DNA of 60,600 nt, filler included, from Sphacelaria rigidula (Eukaryota): assembly GCA_964200075.2 (NCBI GenBank). It is 8 parts of 8 records of this genome, joined end to end, with 100 filler letters (N's around TTAATTAATTAA, not from the genome) between each part and the next. Parts side by side here need not be neighbours in the genome. Positions count along the whole stretch, not along the records: positions 7,589 to 15,076 come from CAXNAA020014696.1; 7 more parts are not named here. One strand, 5' to 3'. This document shows positions 3,871 to 60,600 of the stretch, in pieces (the stretch's first letter is position 1; every line of letters starts with the position of its first letter). The notes beneath the pieces were generated by a model. That model saw nothing but the letters and a program-made list of their open reading frames with translations, had not been told where the DNA came from and did not search any database. The translations under genes and the position numbers were made by a program.

Positions 3871-4301
3871 GTACAGACAAATCTCCGGTACCCTAGGTTA
3901 CTGGCGCCGACAGTAGCAAGAGTTGAACACCACAGAGCCACCGTCAGCAGCCCGGGGAACACCCTTGCTCAATACCCGTGTACAAGCTCGGCTACACTGC
4001 CAACCACCCAGGCTCACCGCCAAATCCCTGGTATATAAAACAAGAGAGAAAGTTCGCCTCGCTTTGGAGATGCTTTGGCAGCTGGGTAACAACAGCGACT
4101 TCCTCCAGAAAGATCCTACGACCCTAGGCAAGTAGTATTCATAGACGGCAATACAACATATACTAGGGTACAAAATGCCATTTGAAAAGAGCACGTGCGG
4201 TGTGCGCACTATCCGACGCCCAACCCATCGCACCTTACGAGAGCTCTTGCTCATCTTACGACCACGTTGCGACGAACGCAAACAACAAACACGGGAAAAA
4301 T

Positions 4302-4387
<86 letters not shown>
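4302..4387. repeat. (AAC)n microsatellite
   Basis: Directly visible perfect AAC run. Confidence 0.98.
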
Positions 4388-7099: not shown

Positions 7100-8045
7100 C
7101 AACTCCGCACAATGGGGATGATCGTATCACGTAGTGGGTCTATGGGAAGACACCCATGAGGCAGTGTATAAGCCGTGGCCGACTTTGGAAGTGGCGATAC
7201 CAGAAAATCAAGCAACTCGTTGGAGGCTGTCATCCAGATGCAAGATAATCGATAGGCTTCGGGCCGAACAATCTTAGCAGGATACAGCTCATCCTTCATG
7301 CGACTCGCCGATCGCACGACGGCGTTGCGTGCTTGATGATCGAGTGCGAACTGGTCCGGCGAAAACCCGGCGTGCTCCGTCCCGGCTTTGTAGGGATGCG
7401 AGGACAATGATCTTATGACTATGGCATGCATGATCATGAGTATACGTCCGGCCCACCCGCCACCTACACCTCCCGCTCACTTTTCAAANNNNNNNNNNNN
7501 NNNNNNNNNNNNNNNNNNNNNNNNNNNNNNNNTTAATTAATTAANNNNNNNNNNNNNNNNNNNNNNNNNNNNNNNNNNNNNNNNNNNNAGTGTGTTCGGC
7601 GAGTCGCATGAAGGGTAAGCTGCACCCTGATAAAATTGCTCGGCGCAAAGCCTACTGATTATCTTGCATTTGGATGGCAGCCTTCAATGAGATGCTTCAT
7701 TTTCTGGTGTCGCTACTTCCAGAGATAGCCACCGCTTATACACTGCCTCATGGGGGGAGGGGGGGTATGCGCGTGTTCCGTTGTCTCTGTAATTTATCTT
7801 AGCCTGAAGTGCGAGCGCAGAGATCCCTCCTGGTCGCGCTTGCTTCATAATGGCATCTCGCGTCTGTCCTTTCGTGCGGAACCGATCTCGACTCTTCGGT
7901 GGAGAGGCCAGTCTCCAGGGGGGGGGTTAGGCGCGCGGGGGGGAAGGGGGGTACTCATGATCATACATGCCATAGTCATAAGACCATTGATCTCGCATCC
8001 CTACAATGCCGGGACGGAGCACGCCGGGTTTTCGCCGGACCAGGC
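7100..8045. repeat. Copies of one interspersed repeat family at the facing ends of two different contigs
   Basis: 7350-7442 is the approximate reverse complement of 7952-8042. 7155-7315 is the approximate reverse complement of 7590-7752. Confidence 0.75.
7489..7588. other. Artificial contig linker N44-TTAATTAATTAA-N44 (also 15077-15176, 22665-22764, 30253-30352, 37840-37939, 45427-45526, 53014-53113)
   Basis: Identical six-frame-stop spacer inside N runs, recurring every 7587-7588 bp. Confidence 0.98.
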
Positions 8046-9009
8046 TTGGCGGGGGGGGGGGTGGGGGGGGAAGGGATACACCTGAAACCTTGAACCGGAG
8101 TTGAAACAAATGACGGCCACGCGGCCCGTCGAAGTAGCTAGCGGACCAAAGCTATGGCAGAAATCCGATTTCAGGCGTTTTCGACCCCGTCTGAGACCAT
8201 TAGTGCGTCATTCGAACCACTTTGGGCCAGTTGTCCGCTTATTATTTCTCCATCGACAGTCAAATACCATGCACGAGGAGATGGTGTCATTTGCCCTAAA
8301 CTTCGGTCGGGACTGAACTTCATACTCGGTGGAAAGCCCGTCCATGACCAGGTGGAGATGCCCCTTCAATTCGCACAGCCTACAGATGAATACGTAACGC
8401 ATTTTTTATTTCGCAAAACGGGTACCACCAGTCGAGTCTGAAGCTGAACATGCACGAAATTCGGAGTAGGGAGTTGCGTTGCTTCATGAAAACAGCGCCC
8501 GTGACGTTTCGGACGTTCATTTTTTCTCCGTTCCCTCGCTCCGATCGACGAGAACGGAACTCATGGTACTTCCTTACACGGAGAAGCAACGTCCTTGGAA
8601 CAAGCCCTTGGGTTCACAGAGAATGGTTTCAAGGATTCGAAATATCGCGGATAGCCCCCAAGGGGAAACATGCTAGCGCATGGGGAAGTGCTGACCCTGT
8701 TTGGACGCAAAATCCACTTGAGCGTTTCAAAAAATGAACAAAAAAACCCGAAAAGGTCGGAATTCTGCTGACTCGCTTGAACTTTCTAATATAGCGAAAC
8801 GACAGCAAGCCAAGTCCCGCCGAGCATTCTACACCTCTGAGTCCTAGAACCGTGTATAACGACCACAAACCAAATCCCGCCGCACATGTTTACACCGACA
8901 TCCGGCCGCATCCTTAAGGCCACTGCTTCTAGGGATGCAGGACTGCTCAGCTGAAGAACTGAGTTATGAGGTATTTGAAGACGAATTGCTTGGTTTTAGA
9001 TGATAATTC

Positions 9010-9210
9010 AAATCGCACGAATCAATCCCTAGGCTTTGTTTCCAGCATTGCAACCCCGTACACGCAGCCCAGGCACGTGGAATGGCGCAAAAGTTGCGTG
9101 GATACCCCCTTCACGAGCGGTCAACTTCGTTCTCCCTTTTGGGCAATCAGGCCGAAGAAATCGTGGATTAGGTGATTCGAACCCGTGATGATCCGTCCTA
9201 AGCGTGAAAA
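9010..9210 (+). repeat. Interspersed repeat, second copy at ~40105-40300 (Sin3 intron)
   Basis: Shared blocks gaatcaatccct, cacgtggaatggcg and caatcaggccgaagaaatcgtg. Confidence 0.8.
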
Positions 9211-11159
9211 AAAATCTTCCAAAGCCATAAGTGGCGGGCGGCCCGCCGGTCGCCACATCCTGTTGCGAGCTGTCTACGGCGACCCATACTGCTTATTACA
9301 TCAGGTTTACACTACCTAATGCGCACCCTACCCGAATTACAGTTTGTACCTGCACCTGAAAATAGATTGGATGAAACTTTCGGTCTTCCTTCCAAGCCTG
9401 CGGTTACATACGTGGATTTTCAGCAACATGAAGCCACTGTTTCGTGCAGACGCCAGACACGTCATTCCTAACCAGCTTCATTGGTCGTTCTGGAGGCCCG
9501 GTCCCAAAATTGTTAAGGGCAGATATCTCGAGACGGTGAATCACGCTTGCTCTTGGACCCCCTTGCCCGAGCTTCCTTCAGTGGAATCGATCTCATCTTC
9601 GAAGATCTAACGCTCAAGAAGACAGCTACCAGTCCGCCTGAATTCTGCAAGGGTAAAGTGGTCCGAGTGCCCCCTCTCCAAAACAGATTCGCGCGCGGCG
9701 TTGGCCGTCCGCAGTATATGACATACCCATGGTGTCATCACACGCACGCGCGCCGAGGATGGGTTGCGACTAAAAACGTTGGGAAGGGTGGTGCGATGCT
9801 TATCGCCCGCACTACACGTATTGTTCATCGGGGCGGCGTGCGCCGAGAGCGTGAAGGAATGTGACTCCCGAATCTGACGAAGGTTGCACGCGATAAGAAA
9901 AGAAAAAAAAAACGCCCTCTTTCACTCGACTAATTCCTTCCGAAAAATCCTGCGCCAAGCACCTTTTTTTTTCAACGTTTTTTTCGACGATCACCATCAG
10001 ACTTTCGGGACGAGTCCAATCTCGAGTGATGGACGGGTCCCTTCTCGGCACTCGCCCCCTTGCCCTACATCTGGTTATCGAGCATTGGATGATTGGACGA
10101 TGACCATCAGCACTGGTGACCTTCTCAGACCCGCCGGGACCATAAAAATTGATTCCATCACTTTCAGGATTCGAACCCCAAGAATCGGCCCAAACTAGCG
10201 CTGTTGAACTACTTTCATCACCGGGACAGCGGGACGTGTCCCTCACATCACAGCCCAAGAACAATTGCCCCACATTACCTTTGCCCCCATCACCATCACC
10301 ACTGCCATCGGAAGAATCAGGAAAGTAAGCCTTGGAGGGTGCCATCCACGGTATGATCTCGAAGAGCAGCAACATCGAAGATTTCCATGCCTCGCTGTAC
10401 CGGTAGATTGGATGGGATTTTGGGACAAAAGAAAAGAATGAGGCCAAGACATGGACAAAAGCAAAAAAAAAAGACTGAGTTAAGTTACACAGCGGTCGCG
10501 AAATTTCCGATGACTCGCGAACATGTTTGACGTACTACTCATGGACGAGACGGTTTGTTTTCGCTTCAGTGCATGCCTTGCACGCTCAACACTTGACTCT
10601 TCCATCATGGTGAAAAAAAACGATGCATCATCAACGAATCTCTGCGGATGTTACTCGCCAGCTGGGGTACACTGCACCGTTGGTTGCGTAACGGGAGAAG
10701 CCGTCGCGGCGACATACGCAGGGGAAGAGCAGTAGCCTCGGCAAGGAATCAATTCCACTGGGCTCGCGTCAACACTTACCAGATACTCTGCAGCACTACT
10801 CCACCATCCATGCTGTTCAAGGACAGGCTGCATCAAGCACATTGAACGGCCTAGGCTGGAGTAGAAGCTGAGCATTGATTAAGCCCTCTCATCACCGCCT
10901 CCCAGTACTCAATTTCCACGCCACACAACGAACGACCGCCGATTCTTGCAACAAAAAAAAGCATCTTTACCGGATATCGCAGATCTGAGACCTCACCCGG
11001 GCTTCACCCATTCCCATTTCTTGCTCCAAAACCTAGTATATTCGACTTGGGCAAAACCGCACATGAAACGTACACTGGAGGCAATGGCAGCAGCTGCACG
11101 AATCATGATGGATGATCGGTAGGCGGCCTGATATATTTACTACTTCCATTCTGTGACAG

Positions 11160-14100
11160 AGGTGTGGTGGAATTCCCCAGGATCCCCCGCAGGTCAGACG
11201 CCACCTTTATTTTCCTTCAGTTTTCATTATCCCACATATATATACCTTCCTTTCTCCCCGACCACAACCCCTCTGGGGTTGGTTGTGTCGGGGTAGGCTA
11301 AACCCCGTCGACAACACAACCAGTACGTAAGAGAGGGTAGGTTGACCTACTGGCTTGTCTGCGTTTCGAACCAGTGGTGATGCAACATACAGTCCATTCA
11401 GTGGGTCCTGTCGACGGTGCTAACGTCCAGGCTCAATCCTGCAGCTTCGGAGTTCTACCCTAGAATGGGAACCAAATTGAACCCCGCAGCTGCAGCGTTT
11501 TACCCGGCATCAAGACACTGCCACGGAGAGCACCTTGATGGAGATGAGGCACGCGTGAGTAAGTATCAAATTCGGCGGACTGGAGATAGCGGCCGACGCA
11601 GGATGGGAAGGCTGCACCCTCCCCGCGAGATAACAAGCGAGGCAAGTACAGTACCGTGATAGACGTGCCGAAGAAAAAATCGAAGCAGAAAAAAGCTCGC
11701 CCGTAAAATTAGGAGGCGGAACAGACCTACAAGGAGAGCAGAGCAAAGAGAAAGACGCGTGAATGTAGAGAAGGCTGAAGCCAGGTCGCGTAGTGGGGAG
11801 TTCAAAGTGGCTACCTATAACGTCCGTACACTGTCCCTCACGGGAAACGGGAAAGAGCGGAGCTGGCCATGCTGAGGTGGTCCTGACAAAATGTCAGGCA
11901 GTCGAATGTGACAACATCGGGCTACGGGAAACGAGTAGACGAGGTCGATCCGAATTTTGTGCATTCGGATATCGTGTCTCTTGCTGCGGGGCAGAGGGGG
12001 GTAAGGGAAGGGCTGGTCAACATGGGGTTGGGTTGGCGGTCACGAAGTCGATCATCAGCAAGGCGACGTGGACTCAGGCACTCATCGGCGAGCGCCTCAT
12101 GACGACGACTTTCAACCTAGCGGGTAAATCAAATGCTGCTACGTTTGTAGCTGCACACGCCCCGACAGACACTCCACAGCCAAAAGAAGAGAGAGCTGTG
12201 TTCTGGACTGAGTTAGACGGCATTGTGAACCGTATCCCCCACAAACATTACCTGTTTATTTTAATGGACGCTAACGCGAGGACTGGAGTACGAGCAGGCG
12301 AGGAGGAGCGTAAAATTGTAGGAGCATGCGGCCGAGACTCCCGATCCAACGACGGTAACGGCACATCTCAAATGCAATTTGCAGGCGACAACAGGCTTTC
12401 CCCTGGTCAACAAGTTATTTTCCACCCCCGAGGGAAACACCTGGCGTACGTTCAACGGTGTTGCGAATCGCCCCGCGGGCAAAAAAACGCATTGACTACA
12501 TCATCACACGGCAAGATCACCGCAGGCCTGTTCGTAATGTTGCCATCCACCTTAAACCCCCCAACTCGCCGGATTCTTACCACAACATCGTGTGCGCCTC
12601 AGTGCGGCTGCTTGGTCGCTTCGCACACAACAGACCTAGACGAACTCCAATTGGGCGTACACCGATCGACAGACGGGCAATAGTATCTGACCCTGACAGA
12701 CGTGAGCAGCTCAGCCAGCTCATCATCAGCGAGCTCAAACAGAGTATACCTGATGATAAGGTCAGTTCACTGGCTACGAACTTTGCCGACTTACTCTTGG
12801 GTGCCGCTGAAAAGGTGATACCCCGTCTGACCCGAAAGCCACGTATACCGGGGTGGTTCGAGGGTGCTGAAATCAGAACGAAATTCGAACAGGCCTGGAT
12901 GGAGAGGGAAAGGGCGAGATCGAAGGTGAGACTGGGATCATTTCGAGATAAAGTCGCATGGCGCACATTGCGAATAGCTTGCAAAAAAATCGAAGGGGTG
13001 ATCCAAGTTGGGGTGGACAGCTATATGGATGTGTATTCTAGAGAAGTAGAGTAATATACTCGAGCGAGGGACATGGGAGGATGGCGCAGATATCTCAACG
13101 GGGGGTGGACACTGTCTGGACGACCAATCGAGAGTGAACAGTACATTCGAGATGAGGACGGCAACTTACTGCGGGACAAAGGCTGGAATCAGTGGGAGAT
13201 AGGAACGGTACTTCTCTACATTGCTGAACGCCATATCGGCAACTATCGACCGCACCGTCATCGATAAGATTGCTCAACGATCGATAGCGCTGTCACTTGG
13301 AGACCCACCGAGCCCAGGTGAAACTTGGGATACTCTGAGAGCTATGTTGAACGGCAAAGCAACCGGTCCGGATGGTATATCTGCTGAAACCCTGAAGCTT
13401 GGACTTAACGGGGAGGCGTCGGACATTCTGTGCCACTTCCAAAGCATCTTCTGCGGTTTGGACATCTGGCGAGGTGCCGCAAGAATGGAAAGATGTCACC
13501 ATCAAAGTGCTACACAAAAAACAAGATAGGACCCAGTGTAGTAGCTACAGAGACATTTCACTTGTGGCACATACCGCCAAAGTTCTCCTCAAAATCGTAT
13601 CCAACAGGCTCGGTAATTTTTGTGAGGAAACAGATGTCTTCCCAGAAGAGCAGTGTGGATTTAGGCGCCAAAGATCGACGTCAGACATGATGTTCGTACT
13701 ACGCCGACGCCGGGAGGTGGGACGGGCGAGCAACGTCCCCATAAACCTATGCTTTATCGATCTGCAGAAAGCCTACGATTCTGTAGACCGCACGCTCCTG
13801 TGGGAAGTGCTTGCTCGATTCGGAGTCCCGTCGCGAATGATCACGATCATCCGTATGTTTCAAGATGGCATGCGAGCTCGGGTACAGCTAGGTAGTGGCG
13901 AACTATCAGCGTGGTTCCACGTCTGCCGGGCAGTTAGACAAGGTTGCGTTTCGTCTCCGCTGTTGTTCAGTATCTTCGAAGCAGGATTTGTGGAAGTAAT
14001 CGCTCAGCGGTTTGCGGCAGACCCAGTCATCGTCTCAGACTTGGTCTTTCTAGATGGCGTGCCAAAAGGTGACGGTGGTGAACCTGTGGAAGAGACATCG

Positions 14101-14965
14101 CTGGAAAAGGTACGATGCGCGGTGTGGGCAATGCTTTATGAGGAAGATGCTGGCATGGCCTCGAAGACCGCAGAAGGCCTTGCTCGAATGATGGCCGTGA
14201 TAGTGATGACCTGCCAGGAATTCCGTCTGATGGTCTCCGAGAGCAAGACAGAGTCTTTGCGCCTTTGGTCAGTACCCAGTCCCACGGAGGCCGCCCTGGG
14301 TATCAAGGCTGCCGATCAACGATATGAGCAGACGGGGAACTTACCTTGGTGAAGCTATCAGCGCGGATGCGAAAATGTCCGTTGAAATCAACCGCCGTAT
14401 CCGCGCGGCGTGGGCGCATATCCGAAAATCTAGTTCCCAACTCTACGACTGACCCAACGCCAAGCTATCCTTGGAAGTTCGACTGCTTAAAGCGGAGGTG
14501 GTAAAAGCTCTGTTGTAGGGATGTGCCACATGAACGCCAGGTTCTGAGGACTTCGACAGTGTGCGGACTGCCCATCACAAGCTCTTGCTGCGAGTGGTTG
14601 GATTCCACAGGAAAGATCGAATTGGCTACAAGACTCTTTCGTACAGAGCGGTGCTCGAGATGACCAACTGCAAACGTATCGAGATGATTATCCGCAAACG
14701 TCAACTCTGGTTCGCGGGAGCCCTTGTCCGGCAGAAGAACTCATGCCTACCTAAACGCGTCATGAACGGTCGGCTTTCCGCACGAGGACCCAAGGAGACC
14801 GGCCGCCGCCCCGAGCAATGGGAGGATACTCTGAAGGAGAACCTACGTGCGCTAGGGACTGCCCCGCACAAAAGAGTCCGACGGAAGTGGTTCGTCTACG
14901 GTGTAGAAGTTAACGATGCATAAGATTAGGTCACTGCGGCGAAGAACATGGGCAAATGGCATACT
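11160..14965 (+). mobile_element. Decayed non-LTR retrotransposon, RTE-like single ORF (APE endonuclease + RT)
   Basis: Endonuclease motifs: FKVATYNVRTL, NIGLRET, LMDANARTG, RIDYII, SYHNIV. RT motifs: KATGPDGI, PQEWK, EEQCGFR, FIDLQKAYDSVDR, VRQGCVSSPLLF and a degenerate YEED in place of YADD. RTE-type C-terminus RKRQLWFAGALVR...LPKRVM. Multiple frameshifts and stops. The 5' boundary is approximate. Confidence 0.93.
11426..11506 (+). other. Two tandem PAM2-like motifs at the LINE ORF N-terminus
   Basis: SRLNPAASEFYP (11426-11461) and TKLNPAAAAFYP (11471-11506) match the PAM2 consensus xxLNxxAxEFxP. Same frame as the endonuclease motif at 11801. Confidence 0.75.
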
Positions 14966-15231
14966 TCCTCTGTCCCATAAGTAAAGTCCGTTATGGGCTT
15001 TTAATCGTCTGTGCATTCAAACTCTTCCTATCATCCCATAGTTGGGTTCGGAGGAAAGATGAAGCGCCAACGAAGCNNNNNNNNNNNNNNNNNNNNNNNN
15101 NNNNNNNNNNNNNNNNNNNNTTAATTAATTAANNNNNNNNNNNNNNNNNNNNNNNNNNNNNNNNNNNNNNNNNNNNACTTGCTTGGGCTGTCTGTGTGGT
15201 AGCGGGTATTGGGGGGGGGGGGGGGGGGGGT

Positions 15232-15277
<46 letters not shown>

Positions 15278-22664: not shown

Positions 22665-25060
22665 NNNNNNNNNNNNNNNNNNNNNNNNNNNNNNNNNNNN
22701 NNNNNNNNTTAATTAATTAANNNNNNNNNNNNNNNNNNNNNNNNNNNNNNNNNNNNNNNNNNNNAGCAGAAAGAATAACTCATATGCTAATATGAGCCAG
22801 CACTGCCCCCCGCTTGCCGCGGTGTCGGGCTCACGTTTAGTCTATAAAGCTGCCGCTGTGAAAAATACGGATACGAATCAAGTCTTCCCGCTGCCTATAT
22901 CCAGCCCATGACCTCAGCTACCACGGTAACAACTTCATGTTGTGTCGACCGGCGTCCGGGCTTGCCTATTCGAAGCTTGCGGCCTTTTCGATCGCTTATC
23001 TGTGATCAGCACATCGTGTGTGGCACAACGGTGTGACAGCTAAGCACGTATCTCATCTGCTACAGGTGCGTTTGCTCCGTGCAATGGCTTGAACGATAGC
23101 TAGAGACTGTCTGATTATTTGCCATGTGTTGCTGTGTCCATGCGGGGCTTGTGGGACGGATGCTGAACGCTGACGGGTGAAACAGATTACGTCAAGGCTG
23201 GCGAATGTAACAGAGTATGTCAAAGCTGGCGGATGTAACAGATGACGTCAACACTGACGTAAATAGCAAGACTCCCCCCAAAAGGGAAGGTTCAACATAA
23301 TGTGAAAAATTACTGGCCATATGCGACGTTTTTTAGGGCTCGAAAAAACTCCGGCATCGTGTTCTTCAAAGACGAGGGAATCCAATGAAAGCGACCTCCC
23401 TCACCTGGCGAGAGCCGTCTCAAATGTACGAAAGGAGATACATACAACAACCGATTCCAATTTTTGGGGTTGAACACCAAAATGGAGCTCAAGCGGTATA
23501 TCGTTTTTGCAGGAATGGCGCGAAGCAGTTACACCAAGGAAAACCATCTTCCCCCCAAACATCTGCAGCAGCTAAGCAATTGTGGCTAGGTGCACCGAAC
23601 GAATGCGGTGCACACGCGTGTCAATGACGATACCACCGGAGGAGTAAAGGCAGAGAGGAAGCTCCTCGCCCGTATCCTTCGTGTGTCCTCGCTCGGCGAT
23701 TTCCAATTCCTCGAGAGACTGGCATCATGCATGTTATCAGCATGTTTCCAATTTTCCGTGTGCTGGTAGGTAGGTTATGCTGCACAACCCCCAAAGAACA
23801 TCGAGGTGCCGACGTGTCGTGTCTTCTTGTCTGTGGAGCTTACCAATACAAGGATCGATTCCTCTCTGCCTCTCGTTTGGACAGGACGCGGCTCTGTGCG
23901 CTGCAGAACACGTCGTTGAAAAACAGGGTGATGTTCCCGTCACCGCTACTGTTCTCTGTTGCACACATGCCAGCAAGGACGGTGCTGCGGTAATAACAGT
24001 TCCAACCGCAACTTGGGGGGCATTATTCATCCTTGATTTTACCCGACATGTGTACTCGTACTCGTGCGTGCGCGACGACAAACGCGTGCCACACGCCAGT
24101 TGGGGAAGGTATATGAGTGATCAAACCCTTGTGGAGACGTTTTTGTCATACGGAGTGAAAAAACCAGACCTATGGTAGTGACCTAACAGTTGCTGGCGTG
24201 GTGCATGGGGGTGTCTCCATGCTGCAATCTTGAGCATCTACCCACCCGCTGCGTGTGTCGCGGTAGCTTTCGACAACTCCCAATTGAGGAGGTCATTCAT
24301 TACACGCTGGGGCGAGATATGTTTCACGAGAAACAAGAGTGCTCTATGATCAACCACTCCTCGTTGCATGTGCGACCCACACCAACAACCGCCGAACGCA
24401 AAGGTCTTGCGGCTTGCAGTCAACGCTGGCAGCAGTACGCCAGACAAACCCGGTCGAAGCTAGCTTTCGTTGCTCTCCTGTCTGTTCTGACTGTCACGGC
24501 GTCTGTACAATCACCTCCTTACAACACCGAAATTGACAAGGGTTACAAAAAATATACAGTTCCATTTTTTCAATTCATCCCACACAATGTGAAGGACTCT
24601 CGAGAGCTGCGGGAAAGTGGCCACGTTGGGGTCGGTCAAACGTGCGAAGATACAATCAAGTGGCAATACAAACTATACCGGGATCAGCATCAATCAATCA
24701 GTATAGAACAGCAGTGAAATGGACAGCCTCACGTTCTGAACAGTACACTCTGTACCCGAGACGGTTTGCATGTGGAAAAACGCGGATTTTCGTTAGGAGA
24801 AACACTTTGTTACCCCGTCAGTGTTACATGATCTGGCAAAAACCATGTCGTTGTGTCTCAAATACCTGGTGGGGGGCGGGAAAGCCACCCTCTGATGAAA
24901 GTCCTTTTTATTGTATGGGATGAGTAGGGAAAAGTGGAACTGTTTTTTTTACAGGCGTTGTTAATTTCGGTGTTGTTACGACGTGATTGTACAGACGCGC
25001 CCCAATGCCTGTCACGCACACGGCCCCAATATTGATTGACGAGGCAATAAATTGTTGTGA

Positions 25061-59091: not shown

Positions 59092-60039
59092 ATGGCAGGC
59101 CTTGTGATCGACGATGGCATCAAAGAGTCAGACTATGGCTATGTGCTGCGCGTTTCGGGTCCTCGTAAGTCGCTGCTGTGGAGCTGTGCTGTTGTTGTAG
59201 CAGAGGGCGCACTTGAGAGAGAAAGTAGTCCGTATTTGTTGTTCGGTTGAGTCATGCCAGGACTTACCTTTGTTGGAGAGGCGTTGCAGTCGAGTTCACC
59301 TGTAATCTCTTCGTTTGTGTGCGGTGAGATGAATTCCTTGATGCTCAGCATTTGCTTCTACAGCGGAAGTAGGAGACCAGCGAAGCCTTCACAGTGCAGC
59401 TAATATGTACACAATTTATTGTAGGAACCCGTAAGCGCTTCGTGTTTTCGTCATTGTGGGCAACAGACTAGGACCTTTCGCGTACACGAACACGAAACTC
59501 GATACTTTTTTCGTGTCCCGCCTTGACTCGGTCTCGCTGCAGGAGCGAGTTGCTTGTTGAAGCTACCCACGCGTAACTAGATGATATCGTTACGATCGCT
59601 GTCTGTCGGTACAGCTCTGATGCTGGTGTAGCTCTGATTCTTGACGGGTGCTTATCAAGCAATCCGCCGTCATGGTGAATTTCGCAACACCAAAAGTAGG
59701 CCCCTCCTCACCCCGCGGCTACGTTACCCCTATCTTTCCTCACAATGTACTCTGAAAACGAGTCGTTTTTATTGGGTTGCACCAACACTGCAATGAACCT
59801 ACTGTAAACGCATGCTCGGAGCTCCCCACACAGCAGCGCTCGCTGATGTTCGTGTTTGTGTTGATCCCATCCCCCGCCCGTCCGCTCATCCTACCTCCTG
59901 CATGCCGTACCTTCGGTAATGATCAGTGGTTATTGCGGAGAGCATGTCCGGGGCTGCTATGTACGAGCTCGTGCGAGTGGGGCACCAGAAGCTTGTCGGG
60001 GAGATCATCAGGCTGGAGGGTGACACTGCTTCCATCCAG
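59092..60039 (+). CDS. VHA-A: V-type H+-ATPase catalytic subunit A, exons 59092-59164 and 59927-60039 (continues beyond window)
   Basis: [62 protein letters not shown] is the conserved V-ATPase A N-terminus. Phase-1 GT-AG intron. Confidence 0.96.
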
Positions 60040-60600
60040 GTATATTCAGGTCCCTTTGACCCTCTTCGCTGTACATGTTTTTTTTGTTTGCCTGCGATCC
60101 AGGTAGCAAGCAGTTATCCTCGCATTCTCCCACGCTTCCTGCCAACGTTGTCTCTGGGTCGGATGTCGTACACACGGGAATCGTCTGGTATTAGCTTATA
60201 CATTTTGCAGCAGCACGTCTTGCTGCAAGTCACACTTGACCGTAGCGAGGAAGAAAGTGGGTCCAGCATCATGCACGATCCGATCGATGCAGTTCCTGTC
60301 ATGCACCAATTCATTTTTGTTCAGGCAATCCGTCCCACACGAGACCGTATCCAACACACCGCAGCGGTTATGGTCACGTGGGATGCGCTCGAAAGCAAGT
60401 GCTCATTACTGGCGACGTTAACTATCATGAGTCACTTGTGGCGTGTTGCCGCCTCACGAGCTTGTATACGGGCGATCTTGAGCTCTCCCTTTGTCGACAA
60501 AATTCTCGGAAATCAATACCCCCCCCCCCCCCCCCCCCCTCCTCCTTCCCTATTTTTTTTTTCTCCAAAACCATCCCCTATCCTTAGATTTTCTTCCTGT

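Follow-up and report, generated by a model that had tools for sequence, protein, structure and literature searches.

The cytoplasmic poly(A)-binding protein (PABP) is bound at its MLLE domain by ligands carrying a PAM2 motif. The consensus of this motif is LNxxAxEFxP, and its Leu and Phe (Trp in LARP4 and LARP4B) sit in two MLLE pockets (PMC7356810). RNA viruses have comparable peptides: 186-LNPAAVPFVP-195 of the Hendra virus P protein binds the C-terminal domain of PABP1 in a motif-dependent manner with Paip1-like affinity, and a coronavirus N peptide was crystallised in the same PABP groove (PMC10132805). Knock-down of PABPC1 lowers retrotransposition and ribonucleoprotein (RNP) levels of the human long interspersed element (LINE) LINE-1 (L1), and the association is reported to be RNA-dependent (PMC4782638). 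Typical ataxin-2 orthologues are described in Ectocarpus, after a group that is said to share a PAM2-containing domain structure (PMC12898128). Here we describe a LINE in a 60.6-kb stretch of DNA from the brown alga Sphacelaria rigidula (the window, that is, the whole stretch analysed), whose family protein begins with two PAM2-like motifs.

The locus holds the 5' end of a decayed member of a high-copy LINE family with a single open reading frame (ORF). As the best overall explanation of the locus, with a probability of roughly 0.6, we propose a PAM2-headed LINE without ORF1, the motifs of which would dock on PABP. The window consists of 8 pieces, with a spacer of 44 N, TTAATTAATTAA and 44 N between each and the next (7489-7588, 15077-15176, 22665-22764 and onward, about every 7,588 bases). 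Pieces that adjoin here are possibly non-contiguous in the genome, and any feature close to the end of a piece is truncated. The element is part of the piece 7589-15076, which is followed by the N/TTAATTAATTAA spacer from 15077, and blastn detected no second copy of it in the window.

A preliminary description of this DNA had claimed two tandem PAM2-like motifs, and both are present where it placed them, in the same frame. The regions of motif 1 (SRLNPAASEFYP, 11426-11461) and motif 2 (TKLNPAAAAFYP, 11471-11506) are contained in one stop-to-stop frame, 11381-11659. A scan of this frame with the Pfam PAM2 hidden Markov model (PF07145), which had been suggested as a check, gave 28.7 bits (E 8.6e-7) over two stretches, against a gathering cut-off of 20. 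The strict pattern LN..A..F.P matched exactly twice in the six frames of the window, both times at these motifs, and 200 shuffles of the window gave a mean of 0.05 matches and a maximum of 1. Thus, the PAM2 observation stands on the Pfam score and on the limitation of the pattern to these two sites. Leu, Asn, Ala, Phe, and Pro of the PAM2 core are found in both motifs, and Glu in motif 1 only. In the PDB, the only sequence match to the motif region was apolipoprotein A-I, at a meaningless E of 1.8.

Other copies of the family were read from public contigs aligned to 11250-12050 in four runs (X1, X2, X4, and X6). At a likeness of at least 80%, 722, 243, 751, and 91 contig pieces fitted this region in the respective runs, indicating a high-copy family. 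The differences listed are the well-supported ones; a further 185 are weaker. Within 11409-11508, a single well-supported difference is listed, 11477 T>C (62% of the X1 depth), which is a synonymous change of Leu in motif 2. The two motifs themselves, compared as segments of 30 nucleotides, are identical at 21 of the 30 positions. Eight of the ten residues are common, five of these eight with different codons, and two residues are changed. The earlier observation that the motifs differ synonymously while keeping their residues was therefore correct, and the codon differences together with 11477 T>C bear out the protein-level constraint it had proposed. At the level of sequence, this is evidence of purifying selection on the doubled motif in the window's family. 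Motif 2 aligns with the single N-terminal motif of four related proteins described below (P0025, P0029, P0030, and P0031). We have little doubt that the motif is genuinely PAM2-like, in frame and conserved.

The 5' end of the family ORF was located in the same contigs. At 11408, where the window has C, other copies have A in 98.7-100% of the depth in all four runs (4237.9 of 4295 in X1, from 32 contigs; 106.9 of 106.9 in X2; 1381.3 of 1381.3 in X4; 27.7 of 27.7 in X6). This A creates an in-frame ATG just before motif 1 in those copies, and the start codon has been lost (CTG) in the window copy. Two codons before the ATG, the codon 11399-11401 is an in-frame TAG in other copies, as read from the loose-end consensus (seven records in X1 and 5 + 5 records in X2). 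No Pfam domain was found in the ORFs upstream of the start position. In one related cluster (P0029), the 1205-residue ORF is on contigs of 4000-4362 nucleotides, and all four clusters with a PAM2 head are on contigs of 4-5.3 kb, which leave no room for ORF1. The TAG, the empty upstream region and the short contigs of the relatives agree with the absence of ORF1 assumed at the outset: the element has a single ORF.

ORF fragments of other copies were used to follow the frame from the motifs into the endonuclease. In P0324, P0325, and P0326, a Met aligns to 11408 and both motifs are present with various mutations. In P0323, an NCBI 'unnamed protein product' of Sphacelaria rigidula, one frame stays open from a Met ahead of motif 2, across the basic patch and into the endonuclease start. 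Three of these four fragments covering the N-terminus begin at the 11408 Met, and all four are decayed copies. The motifs and the endonuclease start are thus in one open frame in another copy, P0323, as had been predicted, and the motifs belong to the single polyprotein of the LINE.

The frame of the window copy is disturbed between these features. The ancestral reading of the frameshifted segment (Table 1) is the neighbouring frame, 11643-11690, and the frame of the preliminary description is ancestral again from about 11690. Contig comparison lists small indels at 11631-11688, and the loose ends behind 11630 continue in frame in 21, 8, and 27 records. The adjacent TGA TAG at 11657-11662 had been attributed to C>T decay of CGA/CAG. 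They lie instead between two compensating frameshifts. Beyond them the same frame (11663-11875) does run to the endonuclease start (GEFKVATYNVRTL, 11795-11833), as claimed. The Arg/Lys-rich stretch between the stops and the endonuclease holds in part: the patch from 11690 (KKLARKIRRRNRP...) is conserved, and RRKNRSRKK (~11669-11689) is an artefact. The two stops and RRKNRSRKK are out of frame because the copy shifts at ~11630 and returns at ~11690. A word search among long proteins for the read-through N-terminus produced 1045 candidates, but E was above 0.001 for all of them.

The ORF of the living family comprises a Met, seven residues, motif 1, five residues, motif 2, about 70 residues with the RRR-x-G-x-L-x-P block, a basic helix, the endonuclease and the reverse transcriptase. 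Arg and Lys account for 28-33% of the N-terminal 108-119 residues and for 14-17% elsewhere in the four relatives and P0323. P0002, the closest of the long related proteins, was used to map the remainder of the copy: its residues 1-1135 of 1163 correspond to 11555-14962 in 7 segments over three forward frames, with 9 internal stops. Residues 87-338 of P0002 are the Pfam domain Exo_endo_phos, and residues 97-293 map to 11847-12434 with 59% identity, in another frame than 11555-11845. The first endonuclease frameshift of the window copy is a 7-nucleotide duplication near 11840. Contigs without these 7 nucleotides numbered 13, 2, 9, and 3 in the four runs (about one-tenth of the X1 depth), and loose ends behind 11847 are in frame in 16, 7, and 16 records (X1, X2, and X4). 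No Pfam domain was detected in the window ORF 11769-12683. The longest open stretch of the reverse transcriptase is 68% identical to P0002. As the ORF would end near 15046, the 3' untranslated region and the tail lie beyond the piece end at 15076. Exo_endo_phos and RVT_1 occur together in P0002 and 14 other relatives. An endonuclease followed by a reverse transcriptase in one protein identifies the element as an APE-type LINE, which we take to be RTE-like.

Table 1 Features of the LINE copy, with positions in the window.
Feature	Position	Strand	Basis and remarks
5' untranslated region	11250-11407	+	Contig pieces of other copies at likeness of at least 80%, four of four runs; true start upstream
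Start codon position of the single ORF	11408-11410	+	CTG in window copy, ATG in other copies
PAM2-like motif 1, LNPAASEFYP	11432-11461	+	Residues 9-18 of family ORF; Pfam; P0324, P0325, P0326
PAM2-like motif 2, LNPAAAAFYP	11477-11506	+	Residues 24-33 of family ORF; Pfam; P0323-P0326
Second conserved N-terminal block, V-S-K ... G-R-R-R-x-G-x-L-x-P-P	11555-11623	+	Alignment; P0002, P0029, P0031, P0052, P0059
Frameshifted segment	11630-11690	+	tblastn frame 1 to 2 to 1 with P0323, P0324, P0326
Basic patch (KKLARKIRRRNRP...)	11690-11794	+	Conserved in all families aligned; adjoins endonuclease
Apurinic-type endonuclease domain, frameshift-broken	11795-12580	+	P0002 mapping
Reverse transcriptase domain, longest open stretch	13396-14352	+	Pfam RVT_1, 84.1 bits, E 1.5e-23
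Remnant of whole single ORF	11408-15046	+	End estimated from P0002 mapping

Relatives were taken as the best 120 of 296 proteins at E 1e-10 or better, with the reverse transcriptase fragment as the query. Among these 120, 22 contain the endonuclease start, and ten of the 22 have at least 60 residues upstream of it. A PAM2-like motif is located at residues 3-14 in four of the ten extended relatives, P0025, P0029, P0030, and P0031, all of which are complete single ORFs of 1199-1240 amino acids. The motif reads LNPNAMVFVP in P0029 and FNPNAKEFIP in P0031, with Trp in place of the Phe in P0025 and P0030. Over the whole protein, these four are mutually 57-69% identical, and the motif-bearing families are 49-69% identical to P0030. 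In the P0030 cluster, a length of 1199 residues is shared by at least 10 of the 15 members listed, and the clusters of all four contain numerous proteins of equal length. The motif pattern had no match elsewhere in the 90,244 residues of listed relatives scanned. An alignment of the N-termini gave a common plan of PAM2 head, linker, V-S-K...RRR block, basic patch and endonuclease. The V-S-K...RRR block is kept even in families without PAM2. In a quick maximum-likelihood tree (IQ-TREE), the window family and the four PAM2-headed families form one clade, with a value of 99 in the Shimodaira-Hasegawa-like approximate likelihood-ratio test (SH-aLRT), and the motif-less P0052, P0059, and P0112 are outside it.

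A wider survey was performed with HMMER, using P0030 as the query against 1.84 billion representatives. Of the 150 proteins listed, 56 include the endonuclease start. Many of the 56 extend far upstream of it, and one carries the motif: P0310, an N-terminal fragment of a close relative (67% identical). This match, likewise N-terminal, is the only one to the pattern in the 129,299 residues of relatives in this survey. Since only one of the 56 proteins with the endonuclease start has the motif, the PAM2 head is a trait of one sub-clade. A metagenome scan gave 10 loci, none with the 5' end of a close relative; three include 3' flanks, in which the element end is undefined. At one marine-metagenome locus (L001, 80% identical to P0030), the last ~250 bases contain a (CAA)-type run and T-rich repeats. 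This flank may be an RTE-style microsatellite end, which a single copy cannot define. When the first 180 residues of P0029 were searched in the ESM Atlas, the matches were clusters of endonuclease fragments at 0.90-0.91, with no useful taxa.

We modelled P0030 with AlphaFold2 from a 73-row alignment. The mean predicted local distance difference test score (pLDDT) was 86.9 and the predicted template modelling score (pTM) was 0.82. Residues 1-66, which include the motif, had pLDDT below 50 (28-34). Low pLDDT is a proxy for disorder only, and on this basis the motif of P0030 is predicted to sit in a disordered tail. Residues 63-110, corresponding to the basic patch, form one long predicted helix into the endonuclease (pLDDT ~75-82). 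Foldseek matched the model with full-length human LINE-1 ORF2p (E 7e-38, ~1080 columns), followed by R2 proteins.

The N-terminus of the element shares several properties with cellular PAM2 ligands. Its motifs have the core LNxxAxx[F/W]xP of Paip1/Paip2, eRF3, ataxin-2, and LARP4/4B, and the region around the motif of P0030 is predicted to be unstructured, which would parallel these ligands. As in LARP4/4B, the motif is close to the N-terminus, and P0025 and P0030 have the W variant of the MLLE-binding PAM2w of LARP4/4B. eRF3 and Paip2 contain more than one PABP-binding motif per protein, and so does the window family. In contrast to these host factors of mRNA metabolism, the carrier is an endonuclease/reverse transcriptase protein of a retrotransposon, and the Glu before Phe of the cellular consensus is missing in motif 2 and most relatives.

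The RNA-virus mimics (Hendra/Nipah P/V/C, HCoV-229E N, and Berne virus N 2-17) are the closer parallel in that a genetic parasite carries a host-like peptide. The motifs of the window match 7 of the 10 positions of Hendra LNPAAVPFVP. The motif of Berne virus N is likewise at the extreme N-terminus, in that case of an RNA-binding protein. However, those are exogenous animal viruses with measured affinities and a crystal structure, whereas the algal genomic LINE is known from its sequence alone. Human LINE-1 is also a LINE that depends on cytoplasmic PABP, and the P0030 model has the fold of L1 ORF2p. L1 has the ORF1p chaperone and is reported to associate with PABPC1 in an RNA-dependent manner, with no mention of PAM2 in L1 proteins in the passage concerned (PMC4782638). 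In the present element, unlike L1, PABP would be contacted by an element-encoded peptide, and there is no ORF1. The single ORF of ~1100-1240 residues with a short N-terminal extension, an endonuclease and no ORF1 is common to the LINEs presumed to be of the RTE clade, and the PAM2 head distinguishes one sub-clade from the other RTE-like proteins.

The motifs probably dock onto the MLLE domain of cytoplasmic PABP. In the mechanism that we propose, the N-terminal motifs would emerge from the ribosome ahead of the rest of the protein and could for this reason capture PABP on the tail of the mRNA under translation, with the adjacent basic helix holding the RNA. PABP docking and the basic helix would together provide the ORF1-less element with RNP assembly and cis-preference. 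That cis-tethering is the purpose of the motifs is a serious candidate, to which we give somewhat less than even odds. A bolder version, in which a short linear motif replaces the ORF1p chaperone as the basis of cis-preference and represents the first retrotransposon-encoded PAM2, convergent with RNA viruses, is more tentative still.

Several observations weigh against this proposal. RTE-type LINEs are known for short tandem repeats rather than A-tails, and the 3' flank at L001 is without an A-run. Six of the ten N-terminally extended relatives show no motif; in three of them (P0052, P0059, and P0112), the N-terminal region is homologous but motif-less. In the clusters nearest to the window (P0002, P0009, and P0020), the called ORFs start 20-40 residues past the motif position. 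The Pfam PAM2 scores of the relatives are below the cut-off in P0029 (16.8 bits) and P0031 (14.4 bits), and P0025 and P0030 were not reported; of the other copies of the window's own family, P0324 scored 21.9 bits, P0325 16.7 bits, and P0323 and P0326 gave no match. Finally, loss of the PAM2w of LARP4B only weakly affects its cellular association with PABP (PMC7356810), and the motif thus need not be the main tether.

The motifs might bind PABP and act in trans or on RNA fate instead of tethering the protein in cis. Occupancy of MLLE would compete with Paip2, eRF3 and deadenylation adaptors of the Tob/PAN3/GW182 type, so that the mRNA of the element would be protected or boosted, as with LARP4, or host mRNA turnover would be disturbed. 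Competition between PAM2 and PAM2w ligands for a single MLLE site is expected (PMC7356810), the viral mimics have been interpreted as rivals of the endogenous ligands (PMC10132805), and tandem motifs would raise avidity on PABP arrays. A retrotransposon protein present in tiny amounts would nevertheless be a poor global competitor, and competition does not need the strict N-terminal position found in all five families. We consider action in trans unlikely.

To about the same low degree, it is conceivable that the PAM2-resembling peptide serves another partner or purpose, such as contact with another adaptor (MLLE-type or unrelated), import into the nucleus in concert with the basic helix, or regulation of protein stability. 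The sub-threshold Pfam scores of the relatives, the Glu missing from motif 2 and most relatives, the second conserved block nearby and the related families without the motif would fit such a role. The residues that are kept (L/F, N, P, A, F/W, and P, at fixed spacing), however, are those that sit in or shape the MLLE pockets, and the window motifs pass the curated cut-off and nearly copy the Hendra peptide, for which PABP binding was measured.

A chance or neutral resemblance without function is very improbable. PAM2 is short, and the copies examined are decayed and variable, but two adjacent matches in one frame contrast with the 0.05 expected per window. The motifs have diverged synonymously with their residues conserved, and a motif is at the same place in families 49-69% identical to P0030. 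The only further match in the two sets of relatives (none in 90,244 residues, one in 129,299) is at another N-terminus. That the segment is a 5' untranslated region, a separate upstream ORF or out of frame in intact copies, as the two stops and several frameshifts before the endonuclease in the window copy and the downstream starts of the nearest long ORFs (P0002 cluster) would allow, is already refuted, on sequence grounds, for families with intact ORFs by the single 1199-1240-residue ORFs that begin with the motif (P0025, P0029, P0030, and P0031), and P0323 is open from motif 2 into the endonuclease.

Other features were noted in and around the element. Two small G+C-rich hairpins are located at 11265-11315 in the 5' untranslated region, where the bin of highest contig depth is 11277-11303; as a structural candidate they were rejected as too weak (-28 kcal/mol, z -2.4; 5 of 200 shuffles did equally well). 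Some relatives start with Met-Gly, but inspection by eye spoke against N-myristoylation there, since the sequence that follows the Gly departs from the typical pattern. On the minus strand, about 0.9 kb upstream of the element, a stop-to-stop ORF of 240 residues (9812-10534) has no Pfam match. At the start of the next piece, 15203-15277 is a run of ~65 G with few interruptions, which stop-to-stop ORFs of the opposite strand translate as a long stretch of proline. A frame that stays open up to the end of the window (59923-60600, plus strand) matched the N-terminal beta-barrel of ATP synthase alpha/beta (29.4 bits, cut-off 20.9). This was the sole Pfam match among 38 ORFs scanned, namely 33 of the 51 ORFs of at least 130 amino acids and five shorter ones in or just upstream of the element.

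A full-text literature search, with most subscription journals outside its coverage, turned up no account of a PAM2 motif in a protein of a retrotransposon, in line with the preliminary description, which knew of none. The element joins a host motif and a LINE framework, each ordinary by itself, in a combination that appears to be undescribed. How a LINE protein finds its own RNA is a long-standing question that has been studied almost only in L1, and RNP assembly of single-ORF LINEs without ORF1p is largely unexplained. A conserved, element-encoded peptide at the N-terminus that would dock on PABP offers a simple hypothesis, open to mutational tests. If these RTE-like elements end without poly(A), the purpose of the PABP contact becomes an interesting puzzle. 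Should PABP docking hold for this family, the mimicry of host motifs known from RNA viruses would extend to transposable elements.

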